Shown: positions 17,223 through 30,774 of the stretch, piece by piece
Layout: each line of letters starts with the position of its first letter
Position numbering within the stretch: position 1 is the stretch's first letter
Source of the DNA: Chlamydiota bacterium
GTDB taxonomy: Bacteria; Auribacterota; JACPWU01
Assembly: GCA_016196885.1 (NCBI GenBank)
Contig: JACPWU010000003.1
Coordinates: 60,001-92,000, forward strand
Length of the DNA: 32,000 bases
Reading direction: 5' to 3'
Notes under the pieces: generated by a model
Databases searched by the model: none
What the model saw: the letters and a program-made list of their open reading frames with translations, nothing else
Told to the model about the DNA's origin: nothing
Made by a program: the position numbers and the translations under genes

Positions 17223-17330
17223 ATGACAAGTTTCAATGTAAATTATGAAAAATCCTTTCGGAAATTCGTTTCCACTCTCCTTTTAATCACTTTTTCATTT
17301 ACGTATCTTGTTCAAGATACGGGATTTGCA
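17223..17330 (+). other. Signal peptide / signal anchor of gene 2
   Basis: In MTSFNVNYEKSFRKFVSTLLLITFSFTYLVQDTGFA|QE there is a basic n-region, a hydrophobic core and an xFA-Q junction. Confidence 0.55.
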
Positions 17331-20300
17331 CAAGAACTCAATACAGCGTATAGCGTTCAGCGGACAGCGGACAGAAAACCAGCGGATACGATTTCTCCTA
17401 AATCAGCTCTGCTTGAAGTTTCTCATGGTGCAGAGGTTTCCATCCCCGCAAACTTAGGCGATGTCATTGACCGCTATGAAGGCAAAGACGACCGCATGAT
17501 TATTCAGATTCAAGACGTGCACTGCCATTTCGAGGCCCAGTCTAATACCGCTAAAATTATTTCTGACCTTCTCCAGAAACATGGGGATCACGGTCTTAAG
17601 ATGATCGGTCTTGAGGCGGCAGAGGGTTCTGTGGATACAACTCTTTTGACTTCCTATCCTGATAAAAAACTTCGAAAAGTCCTCGCCGAATACCTCATGA
17701 AAAAAGGAAAAATTTCCGGTGCTGAATATCTTTCTATCATTCAAGATAAACCGCTTCCTCTTGAAGGCGTAGAAAACATGTTTCATTATTTTGAACATCT
17801 CTTCCAATTTGACCGAGGGTTGGATGTAAAAGACAAAGCCTTGCCCATTTTGGACAAAATAGAAAAGGCAATTACAGATCTGCGCGAAAAAATTTATTCC
17901 CAAGAAGTGTTGGAAGTTTTGAACAAAGAGAAGTCCTATTTGGAAGGGGATACTCAGATTGATGAGTATGGAAAATATTTGGTAGACCAGGCGTTAACTC
18001 TTAAGCTGGATGTTGGGGGGCAGAAAAATTTTCAAGGCATGATGAAAGTGGCAGATTTAGAAAAGCAAATAGATCTTAAAAAAGTAGAAGAGGAAAGAGT
18101 TCATGTCCTTGAGATTTTAAGCAGAAAGCTCGTGAAAGAAGAGATGGTAGAACTGATGACGAAGAGTTTGTATTACAGACTCGAGAAAATGGATGCGTGG
18201 GAATATTATGAATATTTAAAGACTGTCGTGAGTCCCGCGGGGACTATAAAAACATGTCGTGAGTCGTTAGGGGTGAGTGGTCAGAATTCAACGTTAGAGA
18301 AAACTTATCCCAACCTCTCAAAATATATCCAAATGACTGAAATATTTCACGAGATCAAGAGTGATGAGCTTTTGAAGGAATGTGAAAAGATATCAGAGGA
18401 AGTACAGGATAAGTTGTTAAAGACCAAAGAAGAAAAGGCGCTCAGGCAAATTGAGAAAGACTTTATTATTTTGAGAAACTTTTTTGAATTGGAGATGAAG
18501 AAGAGTGAGTTTCAATATTATGTGGAGAATAAGGAGAGGGTTTCAGCAAAAAACATAGTGGATGGGTTGGAAGAAATCCAGGATCCAGGGTCCAGGGTCC
18601 AGGGTAACTCCCCTCGGTCCCCTCTTAAACTAAGAGGGGAGGAAAAACAAAAACAAGAGCAAACAAAGAGCGCTTTTCCTATTTTAAAAGGGGAGGAAAA
18701 GCAGAGATGGGTAACGTCCCCTCCCCTTAGTTTAAGGGGAGATGGAGGGGTTACAAATGACGACATCACATTCCTCGACTCTCATCTCAAAGACCTCGAA
18801 CAATTCTATCGCTATTCAGACAATCGTGAAGAGGCGATGGTCCAGAACACGCTCCGGAAAATGAAAGAGAACGAGAGCCCGATTGCGATTCTATACGCGG
18901 GAGGATTTCATACGGATGGACTCACGAAGCGCTTGGAAGAAGAGGGCGTGTCTTATGTCGTTGTTGCTCCCAGAATCACACAATTCAAACTCAAGACCCC
19001 GTATTTATCTATTATCAAGAACGAGCCTTCGAAATTAGAGAAAATGTTGATGGATTTGGAGAAGAAAGAAAAGGGGACGATGGCGACTCTACCGTTAGAG
19101 GGAGATCTAAAAACAGAAGTTGCTGCTCTCAGTGGTTTGGAGGCAGATGATCCAGCACGAGTGAATGGAGAGGAAACGATTCGGCTTCAAATAGCAGCTC
19201 TTAGATCGGCTTTGATCGTACGTGGGCTGCTAAATTCCGATATTTCGGCAAATGATATTACTTTCACTCGAGAAGGTGACACCGTCACTATTCTCATTTC
19301 TGGCATTCCCAGATTTCAAATCACCCTGAATTCTGAAAATAAAAATAATCCTGAAAAGTTGGTGGAGAGTATTGTGCCTATTGAAGTTTCTGCTCCGACT
19401 GAGCAAACATCGGAGTGGGTAGGTGGCCCTCTTCGTAGTTTGGACGGAAGTTATCAGGCGTTAGAGAGTGAGGAGATTAAGACGTTGAAAGGTCTTGCAA
19501 GCAAAAAAGGGGGATATGCGATTCCTTCCAGTACGGAAACGTTTGGTGATGACGAGGTGGTTTGTCGCGTGGTGGATTATGATGAAAAGAAGGGAGACCC
19601 TGTTTATGATATTTTTCAGCCGCACAGTATCAAGGCCTACCATTATATGGCGGCAGCCGTTCCAAATTCTGAAAGACCAGGTTTAACAAGAATAGTGGTT
19701 TATGCGTTTCTCCCTCGTAGGCTTGACGAAAGGGAATACGCTTTTCGCAAGAGGCATGAAATTTTAGAATCGCTTTGGGAGTACAAGCTTAAAAAAGAGG
19801 GAATAGCCTACCGGAACCGCCTGGAAAAGAATCCTTCAACTCCTCAACCTCTCTGGATGCAATTAGGCCTTTCTCGGGATGTTGCGGCTCATATCCTCGC
19901 TTGGGGACAGCATGTTCTCGAAGAGGGTTGGGATAATATTGAACAGTGCCCCTTCTTGAAAGAAGAAATTCAAAAATTAAATCTTGCCCAACTTCAGGCC
20001 ATTTATTCTGACGAAACCATTCAAGAGAGAAATCGCATTCATAATCCTTTGAGAAAACATTATCTTTCAGGTTTTAACGATGCCGATTGGCAGCGACTTG
20101 AGACCTTTGAAAATTCTGTGAGGGATTTGGCCAGAAGACTTACTTTTCCTTCAAAGTTGGTTCAGGATTTAGATAATCAGGGAAGGGGTCGAAAAGTTTT
20201 GTGTCTTGGAGCAGGTGGAGACTATCAAGAGGCAAATTTCTTTAGCTCCCGTAATTGTGGTGTGGAAGTGGTCAAAATGAGAGGGGACGCAGAAGGTGAT

Positions 20301-30600: not shown

Positions 30601-30774
30601 AACAGGGCTGGCTATGAAATGGATCCTGAGCTTGCTCAGTTGATTAAAGATGCTGAAGGGGAGGCAGAGCTTTCCAGAGTTCTCAGTGGCCATATAGGCC
30701 CTGTTCCACCACACATGAGTCAATGGCTTGACTTTAAGAAACGTGCCCAAGAAGAAGCCGGGAAGCAGATGTAA
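27100..30774 (+). CDS. C-terminal ORF of gene 2 (continuation after the +1 frame change)
   Basis: This frame is closed by TAG at 27079-27081 and opens at GTG 27100. There is no convincing RBS. Its first residues continue the upstream domain repeat (GGVNTIVFKAP vs GGNLIEVIPAG). Stop is TAA at 30772-30774. Confidence 0.8.
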   Translation: MEGVNTIVFKAPRRVPLENLNGVTTTDDVIYLFQTEPERASASNGGVSAEVVEDYENRNIVLTIDTGNATNGEVYLDRRIYAPPTEEEISQISAAGGLVYNVAVRSGSVKEYYTEIELKTTEGEVVKLRYKIDSTVIAAGRVLLEIPEGYDIATLSSWVDVFLFDYNDSNNDGLPDNDSIGKGKTEIVFVGPHKVIAFDPASDDYLDYASTYFSEAVNSGYQNCTIGLTDYAVDSALGEAGWKVRALYSDSETFVAGSKDSYAIHYWKLDEGNGGVPLNILDEYGDVLVDTDGDGVGDSFLFKGMSSSYDNAGTLIQTLKRIWIGFQYVNAYGELESEAHPAVYVEKGNVKGWTVPFSAYTKVDFTKVTQAQVLFYGTDVTDELMTLINQAKEAGDDTLYSELTQAIGVDYAAWAQTGVTASGGSGARESESQSALPEINGPSLSGNVHPAESPAGGGGAGQISTVPESLLHLLDQLLGGGSPGEHGSANFGPNAISVTPPPTYFEGETGVAPVGDANLDTTPRSLSKDGNGSLKITFSSDDLSQEGDYLGFNVTPGFLDLTGLSEFNIWMGNASGIKSARLAFLDEEGHYWFGFLDGISQNVNSWTIPKSAVDSTSKGKLNGSKVAVFILVDKESLEEGLEGEDLNLDIQFGHKVESEAAAYEIYPPGCSQGGLFPRGRMTPLWGILVLMLPWVLRARVRRDGGGSGGGSGKVSFREDIRRALSELKQGRHLSSIPTPSRICEDLARRVISGMNPEGDVEENKNFQAEFLSVLALLDEETPFSQLSAAVDHLIQTRMDELKSAGKEPQESGLSDLKNDFLAQMIALRAAFESIPINIREMSTILEDYDLSNATVGEVMLLPSSFTLNPFASLMYGFIVKGDEILMTNLDFERQHQSVSFDARTQKAWASLRDRLVDSHRTYKDLYIGFIDYIDPNTWLPEILDALLNGDVQFSRGQGGKVFLELSPRPGFPDDGRGLRAEISFNGESGDHESRILVKITSLDHLYRKYYENHFPYQRHVLAMDHILSGLNVDASGNVQVTGDRSVLDGLIHDVGWDVKSIITVSSPEGADKKQVETNVRTALGIEGNKNIAIMVYGHETTAEQLQNMIERAARTLSGLKESFDPKKNLTLLFSDQNPLAEELHSLQNLVVWIATGDLTLKDLSIAFNRAGYEMDPELAQLIKDAEGEAELSRVLSGHIGPVPPHMSQWLDFKKRAQEEAGKQM
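28660..29060 (+). other. CBM/CIA30-like beta-sandwich region (by-eye pattern)
   Basis: GSLKITFSSDDLSQEGDYLGFNVTPGFLDLTGLSEFNIWMGNASGIKSARLAFLDEEGHYWFGFL...WTIPKSAV...SKVAVFILV follows the pattern common to carbohydrate-binding-module-like domains. Confidence 0.3.
29140..29208 (+). other. Late TM anchor followed by a basic cluster in gene 2
   Basis: MTPLWGILVLMLPWVL is followed by RARVRRD and then a GGGSGGGSG linker. Confidence 0.6.

Follow-up and report, generated by a model that had tools for sequence, protein, structure and literature searches.

Does the span at positions 17223-30774 of the 32,000-nucleotide (nt) stretch of Chlamydiota contig JACPWU010000003.1 analyzed here (the window, to which all positions refer) encode a single giant protein, and what kind of protein would that be? 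Giant multi-enzyme membrane proteins of uncultured PVC-related and neighboring phyla are recognized and still unexplained, and they are hard to compare because most of them are sequence-unique; this locus offers a tractable small example, of 4.5 thousand amino acids (kaa). The initial annotation described one protein of ~4,500 codons. As given, this does not hold, since the 13,552-nt span is not divisible by 3 and carries two open reading frames (ORFs) with a frameshift near 27100, but the claim is probably right biologically, after removal of 19 nt. Our analysis indicates that the locus is probably one gene of ~4,510 codons for a Sec-targeted, membrane-anchored modular envelope protein, broken here by an assembly artefact. 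Most likely, the protein is a smaller and largely orphan representative of the giant multi-enzyme proteins that have been reported from Omnitrophota and Elusimicrobia.

Reading Frames and the Frame Break

On the + strand, ORF A runs in frame 0 from 17163 (TTG) or 17223 (ATG) to 27248 (3,361 or 3,341 amino acids), and ORF B occupies frame +1 from 27100 to 30774 (1,224 amino acids). The +1 frame is closed by a stop until 27081 and open from 27082, and frame 0 ends at the stop at 27248; therefore, any read-through from ORF A to ORF B must switch frame within 27082-27248. In GenBank, the product of ORF A is named UTP-glucose-1-phosphate uridylyltransferase, from a "Chlamydiae bacterium" metagenome-assembled genome (MAG) with locus tags HYZ67_. 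The parts of this region are:

17223-27099, + strand, ORF A part in frame 0 (GenBank MBI3265563.1, 3,341 amino acids; in the window the frame continues to the stop at 27248)
27081-27118, + strand, frame break, a 19-nt near-duplicate (copies 27081-27099 and 27100-27118, identical at 14 of 19 positions)
27118-30774, + strand, ORF B part in frame +1 (GenBank MBI3265564.1, hypothetical, 1,193 amino acids from the TTG at 27193)

Deletion of either 19-nt copy restores a single very long reading frame of 4,510 amino acids, which is why we read the break as an assembly artefact. Copy 1 (27081-27099) is GCCAAGGGAGCCAACACGA and gives the peptide AKGANT in frame 0, and copy 2 (27100-27118) is GTGGAGGGGGTCAACACGA and gives VEGVNT in frame +1, the two 19-mers encoding a homologous hexapeptide, each in its own reading frame. 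They are the sole adjacent pair in the 32 kb to reach 14/19 identity. The break lies between the two copies of a ~205-amino-acid tandem repeat and splits the linker motif GANTIVFKAPRRV, which is intact again after the second repeat as GKTEIVFVGPHKV; ORF B by itself would be a truncated domain without an export signal. Codon usage in the two ORFs is correlated at r = 0.88, against 0.05-0.21 for out-of-frame controls. The chance of the frames staying open is 5e-93 over 3,341 codons and 1.5e-34 over 1,224 codons, and an old frameshift is hard to reconcile with both of them still being open.

The junction is also covered in another MAG from this population, whose 86,830-nt contig JACOUD010000054.1 terminates inside the gene. 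The contig is 100% identical to window positions 7223-26802 (19.6 kb), is identical again over 26967-27099, and has no extra 19 nt, reading in frame as ...AKGANTIVFKAPR. Its end, ...GCC AAC ACG ATA GTG TTC AAA GCG CCA AGA A, translates in frame 0 as ANTIVFKAPR, and the contig thus runs straight from the frame of ORF A into the peptide of ORF B. The final 21 nt after the junction differ from the window at 3 positions, all of them synonymous in the frame of ORF B. The idea of a single chain is thus supported by the repaired ORF, by the in-frame second assembly, and by a repeated domain and linker that span the break. It is worth noting that the sister contig lacks window positions 26802-26966, an in-frame deletion of 165 nt (55 codons) in the first tandem repeat ~130 nt before the contig end, which may be strain variation or a contig-end artefact.

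From these assembled sequences, the break is most likely to represent two diverged versions of the same 19 nt that the assembler or scaffolder placed one after the other. The two versions, which may be strain alleles or neighboring repeat linkers, would have been joined in tandem at a contig or haplotype join (a graph branch point); the extra 19 nt would shift the frame by +1, and the true junction would run ...GCCAACACGAT(A/T)GT.... Several points count against this interpretation, namely that GenBank holds two separate genes, that a Shine-Dalgarno-like AAGGGAG stands 9 nt upstream of the GTG at 27100, and that the end of the sister contig is irregular, with the deletion 130 nt upstream and only 21 nt past the junction.

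The separate GenBank entries and the AAGGGAG, together with the presence of the break in the window sequence itself, would suit a genuine frameshift that leaves either two separate genes or a recently inactivated pseudogene, ORF A then being a secreted head and enzymes with a short out-of-frame tail and ORF B being separate or unmade. We regard this as unlikely, since a recent duplication would have produced identical copies, and the two 19-mers differ at 5 positions yet encode a homologous peptide in each frame, while after an old one ORF B should have decayed, and yet its 1,224 codons are open; in addition, the sister assembly is in frame, and a separate ORF B would begin within a repeated beta domain with no signal peptide. 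Another possibility, which we consider quite unlikely, is that the ~205-amino-acid repeat is present more than twice in the true gene, which would then encode more than 4,510 amino acids, the window having fused two linkers, one that follows a given copy and one that precedes a later copy. The linker motif does recur after each repeat, the sister contig breaks at the same spot as the 19-nt duplicate of the window, and its 165-nt in-frame indel and synonymous changes fit the sampling of different repeat copies. However, the repeats are only 31% identical as protein, making a collapse at the DNA level unlikely unless closer copies exist, and any additional copies are hypothetical. Large surface proteins are often phase-variable, and a G5 homopolymer (27103-27107) lies within the inserted copy, but a programmed +1 frameshift or a phase-variable on/off switch at this run is highly improbable: the window departs from the in-frame allele by a block of 19 nt rather than by 1 nt in the G run, five Gs are short for slippage, and no frameshift-stimulating signal was seen. 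We retain a single gene with a probable assembly break. As a caution, such local assembly errors split genes of this kind in public annotations, and catalogs of called ORFs therefore under-count and truncate giant genes.

A TIKI/ChaN-Like Head Shared with Other Large Proteins

The protein starts with two elements that proved to be common to a family:

17223-17330, + strand, signal-peptide-like N-terminus (K/R-containing n-region, h-region at amino acids 16-30, then GFA/QE; heuristic)
17457-18971, + strand, TIKI/ChaN-like head (alpha/beta core at amino acids 79-183 and 512-583, with a ~330-amino-acid all-helical insertion between them)

The N-terminal signal peptide of the initial annotation was borne out by this heuristic, with hydrophobic residues 16-30 preceded by K/R and followed by GFA/QE. 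Searching with ORF A retrieved 44 proteins, one of them the sister copy; the 43 others are 2,117-5,781 amino acids long and, where the source is named, come from Omnitrophica, Elusimicrobia/Endomicrobiales, and Chlamydiae MAGs. According to BLAST mapping, all 43 align solely to residues ~10-750 of our protein and always through their own N-terminus; even the closest, a protein of a Chlamydiae MAG, is 49% identical over the head and unrelated beyond it. A hydrophobic segment precedes the head in 36 of the 44 members.

The heads have an invariant I, D, H, and Q in IQDxH...AQ, E in LEGA, G, R in RD, GG.H in GGFHT, and P (here, among others, D98, H100, Q106, E131, R535, G560, G561, H563, and P583), and the residues of a TIKI-type catalytic set, D98, H100, E131, R535, and H563 (of GGFH), are invariant across the 20-22 aligned heads. 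The structure paper on RRSP places HopBA1 and ChaN in the TIKI superfamily and gives as the superfamily signature an acid-x-His, a Glu ~28 residues on, and a distal His (2His/2Glu), as in E3900/H3902/E3930/H4030 of RRSP and H85/E113 of Bcr135. The pattern of the heads, D/E-x-H, E 28-31 residues on, and a distal H, corresponds to the 2His/2Glu active site of RRSP and Bcr135. In addition, the Pfam family PF04187 (ChaN, Tiki superfamily) matches 7 of 22 full homologous heads (best E 3.1e-7) and 9 of 20 core-only constructs, and PF01963 (TraB/PrgY/GumN) matches 3 of the 20 core-only heads; no other Pfam family matches more than one of these 20. An AlphaFold2 (AF2) model of the head built from 22 sequences (predicted local distance difference test, pLDDT, 79) has a strand-helix core in two blocks with the ~330-residue helical insertion between them. 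Among the Foldseek matches of this model to PDB with probabilities above 0.1, the only known TIKI-superfamily folds are those of HopBA1 (5t09; 0.41) and ChaN (2g5g; 0.13).

The evidence on the head is less favorable when our protein is taken by itself. Its head matches no Pfam family at E ≤ 0.1, and its core-only construct reaches E 0.12 and 12.8 bits against a cut-off of 27.7, missing the threshold of the clan hidden Markov models (HMMs). The Foldseek comparison with PDB gave nothing significant (best E 0.3), and searches of PDB sequences with head profiles, both full (A2) and core-only (A3), retrieved no TIKI protein and only weak calmodulin-like or chance matches. The Tiki/ChaN/TraB call of the initial annotation has its support at the level of the family, from PF04187 on relatives and from the invariant D-x-H...E...R...GGxH, and not from Pfam scores of the head itself. 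With the clan matches on homologous heads, the HopBA1 and ChaN folds, and the catalytic signature taken together, we regard the call as probably right at the superfamily level, with an active site that appears intact from its sequence.

Like members of the TIKI/EreA/ChaN/TraB-PrgY-GumN superfamily, the head has a predicted alpha/beta core, an acid-x-His, a Glu ~30 residues on, the His of a GxxH, and an Arg, and models of this clan are the sole recurrent Pfam matches on the heads. It differs in that its two halves are split by the helical insertion, its first motif is IQDxH instead of GxxH, its scores fall below the Pfam thresholds, its activity is predicted only, and it is fused to thousands of residues of cargo. 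The helical insertion at residues ~190-320 (window ~17790-18180) gave a weak match of the head profile to calmodulin/centrin EF-hand pairs (E 0.0026), an unproven resemblance that may be chance similarity between helical pairs.

The head is the most useful new element of the locus, a conserved handle whose catalytic set appears intact and which connects at least 44 proteins and, through those with source names, three phylum-level labels: Omnitrophica, Elusimicrobia/Endomicrobiales, and Chlamydiae. It could be expressed and assayed alone, and if it is a processing or export module, cleavage of these polyproteins becomes a testable question.

Beyond the head, little is shared. When 13 blocks of our protein were compared with the 44 family members by phmmer, no match fell below E 0.03. 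A search for homologues of the C-terminal half retrieved the sister MAG alone, an exhaustive search of the last 1,200 amino acids against 1.84 billion representative proteins returned only the protein itself, and exact-DNA scans of genome and metagenome collections for orthologous loci found nothing. Since the homologues share the head only, ~85% of the protein (~3,900 amino acids, including all of ORF B) is orphan. The cargo of the homologues includes PGM, PGK, enolase, PPDK, UDPGDH, starch synthase, glycogen phosphorylase, and GH77/GDE, along with M48 and ABC1, PP2C, SecA-DEAD (SecA_DEAD in family member P0018), radical SAM, NUDIX, kinases, and TPR/HEAT repeats.

At their other end, 31 of the 43 proteins terminate in Ala, mostly as [S/A/N]A-COOH after an amphipathic helix (...FLAINA, ...QVLSAA, ...RVQASA), an ending that we take to be reminiscent of a HlyA-type C-terminal secretion signal. 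The protein studied here ends in ...EEAGKQM, and neither it nor its closest relatives have the motif. A conserved C-terminal domain linking ORF B to the family was considered and rejected, as BLAST clustering of tails gave pairs only, and a tail HMM scored only its own training set and failed leave-one-out for 29 of 31 tails; what is conserved in the family tails is the short terminal motif only. The only related locus in species-representative genomes, L002 (CAZXEQ010000007.1, 1-19119), holds a head-family ORF of 2,587 amino acids with no Pfam domain, sharing only the head with our protein. Its flanking ORFs run off the locus at a length of at least 2,375 amino acids on the minus strand and at least 1,116 on the plus strand; here too, giant genes cluster.

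Enzyme-Like Modules

The head is followed by three blocks:

18978-20189, + strand, unique block with no detectable homologue or domain
20157-20800, + strand, class I S-adenosylmethionine (SAM)-methyltransferase-like module, sub-threshold, with the motif LGAGGD
20992-22230, + strand, UDPGP, a UTP-glucose-1-phosphate uridylyltransferase of the eukaryotic type (Pfam match 21501-21923; LAAGGSSRM loop near 21020)

The UDPGP module is the only one to exceed a Pfam threshold anywhere in the protein, which has no matches to NCBIfam. PF01704 matches at E 5.6e-10 with 38.9 bits against a gathering cut-off of 22, and eukaryote-type UDP-glucose pyrophosphorylases (UGPases) in PDB match at E 3e-4, confirming the initial call. 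Our module resembles these enzymes (e.g., Leishmania major UGP, PDB 2oef) in its central catalytic region, which scores above the cut-off, and in the G-rich nucleotide-binding loop LAAGGSSRM, noted by eye in the translation. It departs from them in that the alignment is limited to the central third, profile positions 159-294 of 413, and in that the module is buried at residues ~1257-1670 of a 4.5-kaa protein.

The SAM-methyltransferase call is consistent with the data, although all of its Pfam scores are below the gathering threshold: PF13489 gives E 1.1e-3 and 19.1 bits against a cut-off of 27, PF08242 gives 19.6 against 30, and PF13649 gives 15 against 27. Residues 971-1137 are colinear with residues 26-170 of a solved methyltransferase (PDB 3e23, E 1.4e-3), and a GxGxG-like motif I, VLCLGAGGD, stands at residue ~990, a combination of motif and colinearity expected of class I methyltransferases. 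The block described initially as unique stands as such, with no homologue and no Pfam match at E ≤ 10.

Hydrophobic Segments, Acidic Repeat Region, Anchor, and Tail

From the end of the UDPGP module to the C-terminus, the features are as follows:

22542-22613, + strand, strong hydrophobic segment 1, signal-like (amino acids 1774-1797; LLVLALTAAALFVAP...ARA/A)
23558-23625, + strand, strong hydrophobic segment 2 (amino acids 2113-2134; K/R-rich on its C-terminal side)
24621-24679, + strand, weak Ala-rich hydrophobic segment (amino acids 2467-2485; hydropathy 1.08; ends ...SGC)
24678-29091, + strand, acidic region, K/R-poor and presumed beta-rich (net charge -139 over 1,465 amino acids; no family)
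26595-27059, + strand, tandem repeat copy 1 (amino acids 3125-3279)
27154-27600, + strand, tandem repeat copy 2 (amino acids 3305-3453 of the repaired protein)
29143-29187, + strand, short hydrophobic anchor (TPLWGILVLMLPWVL, then RARVRRD)
29209-29235, + strand, Gly/Ser linker (GGGSGGGSG)
29236-30771, + strand, C-terminal tail of ~510 amino acids with no homologue (mixed helical and alpha/beta in a low-confidence prediction)

The three internal signal- or transmembrane (TM)-like segments proposed initially are reduced to two that are strongly hydrophobic, at 22542-22613 and 23558-23625; the third, at 24621-24679, is weak (1.08) and lipoprotein-signal-like, without a canonical lipobox. Overall, hydropathy supports four segments, the N-terminal signal-like one, the two strong internal ones, and the short anchor at residues 3968-3982, and the two regions between TM segments are basic. 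The anchor and Gly linker were correctly placed, the short hydrophobic stretch 29143-29187 being followed by RARVRRD and GGGSGGGSG. The block described as beta-rich, which we continue to presume to be so, is strongly acidic, and the tandem duplication within it is real: its copies (residues 3125-3279 and 3305-3453) share 31% identity over 157 amino acids with a pairwise E of 3e-26.

By contrast, the carbohydrate-binding module (CBM)-like domain assigned to 28660-29060 was not recovered, with no Pfam match at E ≤ 10 (28522-29091), no PDB sequence match, and only low-confidence beta strands in an AF2 prediction with pLDDT below 50; a marginal match to CBM_17_28 (E 0.026) lies elsewhere, in repeat copy 2. 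A single-sequence AF2 model of the last 1,200 amino acids has a pLDDT of 35.7 and was unusable, and it was left out of the fold search; its secondary structure loosely agrees with the beta-rich repeat and "CBM-like" stretches. For the tail, which had been called helical, the same low-confidence model suggests helices, mixed however with alpha/beta. Pfam searches at E ≤ 10 on ten separate blocks (the unique block, inter-segment regions, beta blocks, the CBM-like stretch, and the tail) gave nothing usable, and ORF B has no PDB sequence match.

At 29080-29200, ...YPPGCSQGGLFPRGRM-TPLWGILVLMLPWVL-RARVRRD is arranged like a C-terminal sorting signal (motif, short TM segment, Arg cluster), 530 residues from the actual C-terminus. 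Because this arrangement and several signal-like segments are internal, the sequence suggests that the gene originated when exported proteins that had once been separate became fused.

Comparison with Known Giant Proteins

The initial annotation knew of no described protein with this combination of parts. This overlooks the literature on Omnitrophota giants with a signal peptide and TM segments, in which methyltransferase, sugar-nucleotide, glycogen, and glycolytic enzyme domains are tiled together with repeat scaffolds; our protein is real and unusual, yet it is a variant of a kind already reported. "Archaeovorin"-type giants of Omnitrophota combine methyltransferases, glycosyltransferases, NUDIX, PGM, PPDK, and SecA domains with many TM helices (West-Roberts et al., 2023, bioRxiv 10.1101/2023.11.21.568195), and in the "multi-enzyme metabolic cluster" class, 94% of the long proteins have a signal peptide or TM helices (Nielsen and Lui, 2026, bioRxiv 10.64898/2026.06.07.730766). 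Giant genes have also been reported as common in Elusimicrobia. Neither West-Roberts et al. (2023) nor Nielsen and Lui (2026) mention Tiki, ChaN, or TraB, and a full-text literature search on the Pfam names gave no link to such giant proteins.

With the Omnitrophota giants, our protein shares a very long polypeptide, an N-terminal signal, TM segments, a hydrolase domain near the signal peptide, and a layout of tiled divergent enzyme modules, repeat or adhesin-like regions, and large unannotatable stretches; its head-family homologues have the same Pfam repertoire, and in both cases the source is an uncultured, probably host-dependent bacterium with adjacent giant genes. It differs in its length of 4.5 kaa, against at least 10-30 kaa, in having just 3-5 hydrophobic segments, in coming from a MAG labeled Chlamydiae, and in an N-terminal hydrolase that is TIKI-like, not C39 or S8; moreover, SecA-DEAD, glycosyltransferase, NUDIX, HEAT, and dockerin domains were not found in its Pfam search. 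At 4,510 amino acids and with no SecA, glycosyltransferase (GT), glycoside hydrolase (GH), or NUDIX domain, it is not an Archaeovorin (>90 kb or >30,000 amino acids, SecA-DEAD, numerous TM helices, and GT/GH/peptidase/NUDIX domains). It is also too short for the multi-enzyme clusters (at least 10 kaa, many Pfam domains, signal peptide and TM helices) and has one Pfam domain above threshold, although signal peptide and TM segments are present by heuristic.

MARTX toxins and giant RTX adhesins, which are substrates of type I secretion systems (T1SS), are likewise proteins of several thousand residues with interchangeable enzyme or effector modules and repeats, and MARTX toxins can include a TIKI-family endopeptidase (RRSP). 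However, our protein does not qualify as a T1SS substrate of this kind: Pfam searches found no RTX or glycine-rich repeats and no CPD, its N-terminal signal is of the Sec type, its C-terminus is ...GKQM, and the window contains no T1SS genes, the neighbors being toxin-antitoxin pairs and a giant ORF.

Proposed Working and Topology

In the other members of the family, the TIKI/ChaN-like head behind the signal peptide is followed by 2-5 thousand residues of lineage-specific cargo; in our protein, the cargo would come in the order methyltransferase-like module, UDP-sugar pyrophosphorylase, two or three membrane segments, acidic repeat ectodomain, anchor, and tail. The protein would be threaded into and across the inner membrane by Sec-dependent insertion, and the acidic, beta-rich ~1,465 residues would be displayed on the surface, where they would meet a partner or host cell. 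The last anchor would hold this ectodomain and leave the ~510-residue tail on the side that is rich in K/R and presumably cytoplasmic. As a hydrolase, the head would either process the polyprotein itself, much as C39 or S8 peptidase domains have been proposed to do in Omnitrophota giants, or attack an envelope, host, or partner substrate, and the enzyme modules would supply or modify material derived from sugar nucleotides. This inferred mechanism matches the proposals made for the Omnitrophota giant proteins.

Function is assigned by analogy, as ~85% of the protein has no homologue. Some observations fit poorly with a surface location: a cleaved N-terminal signal would take the modules that depend on UTP and SAM out of the cytoplasm to a place where one would not expect their substrates, and the distribution of K/R around segment 2 is in keeping with the reverse orientation. 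A possible but doubtful alternative is a membrane-tethered cytoplasmic multi-enzyme scaffold, with the N-terminal segment as only an anchor, the head and enzymes in the cytoplasm, and short loops and the acidic region outside. UDPGP and SAM-methyltransferase reactions need cytoplasmic UTP and SAM, the erythromycin esterases of the TIKI superfamily are cytoplasmic, and the K/R bias that follows both segment 2 and the last anchor agrees with an in-out-in-out-in path starting in the cytoplasm. Against a scaffold, the N-terminal segment is built like a cleaved Sec signal, with n-, h-, and c-regions, most family members have a hydrophobic segment before the head, and the authors of the Omnitrophota catalog gave up an intracellular reading after topology prediction. 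In addition, 8 homologues (e.g., P0004, P0005, P0007, and P0008) have no hydrophobic segment besides the N-terminal one, so that head and enzymes must lie on the same side, which keeps delivery to a host under consideration. On that tentative and rather unlikely reading, the signal peptide and TIKI-like head would define an undescribed cross-phylum family of cargo-carrying exoproteins of 2-6 kaa that deliver metabolic enzymes into host or prey. The conserved N-terminal protease or esterase and, in most members, the [S/A/N]A-COOH signal would serve export and processing, and the interchangeable enzymes (UDP-sugar, glycogen, glycolysis, kinases) would act outside the producer cell; if true, this would be a MARTX-like delivery logic for metabolic enzymes instead of toxins. 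For the protein studied here, we continue to favor an anchored envelope protein.

Neighborhood in the Window

The gene lies 2 kb downstream of another giant ORF, of which positions 10-15039 (+ strand) encode the C-terminal 5,009 amino acids; the sister MAG annotation gives it 9,014 amino acids in total. This upstream ORF has many hydrophobic stretches and no Pfam domain, and no homologue was found for the first 1,500 of its residues that the window encodes. A promoter and terminator scan was at chance level.

Two toxin-antitoxin-type pairs stand between the giant genes on the + strand, DUF433 with DUF5615 (PIN-like) at 15051-15688 and a nucleotidyltransferase (MNT) with HEPN at 15861-16600. 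The window also has three copies of a direct repeat of 60-77 nt, one at the 3' end of the upstream ORF (14957-15033), one after the first pair (15702-15778, 97% identical), and one after the second (16749-16808, 72% identical). The possibility that these are attC-like repeats was rejected, as they form no hairpin beyond shuffled controls. From the arrangement of the repeats, it looks as if each toxin-antitoxin cassette was inserted together with a copy of the end of the gene.

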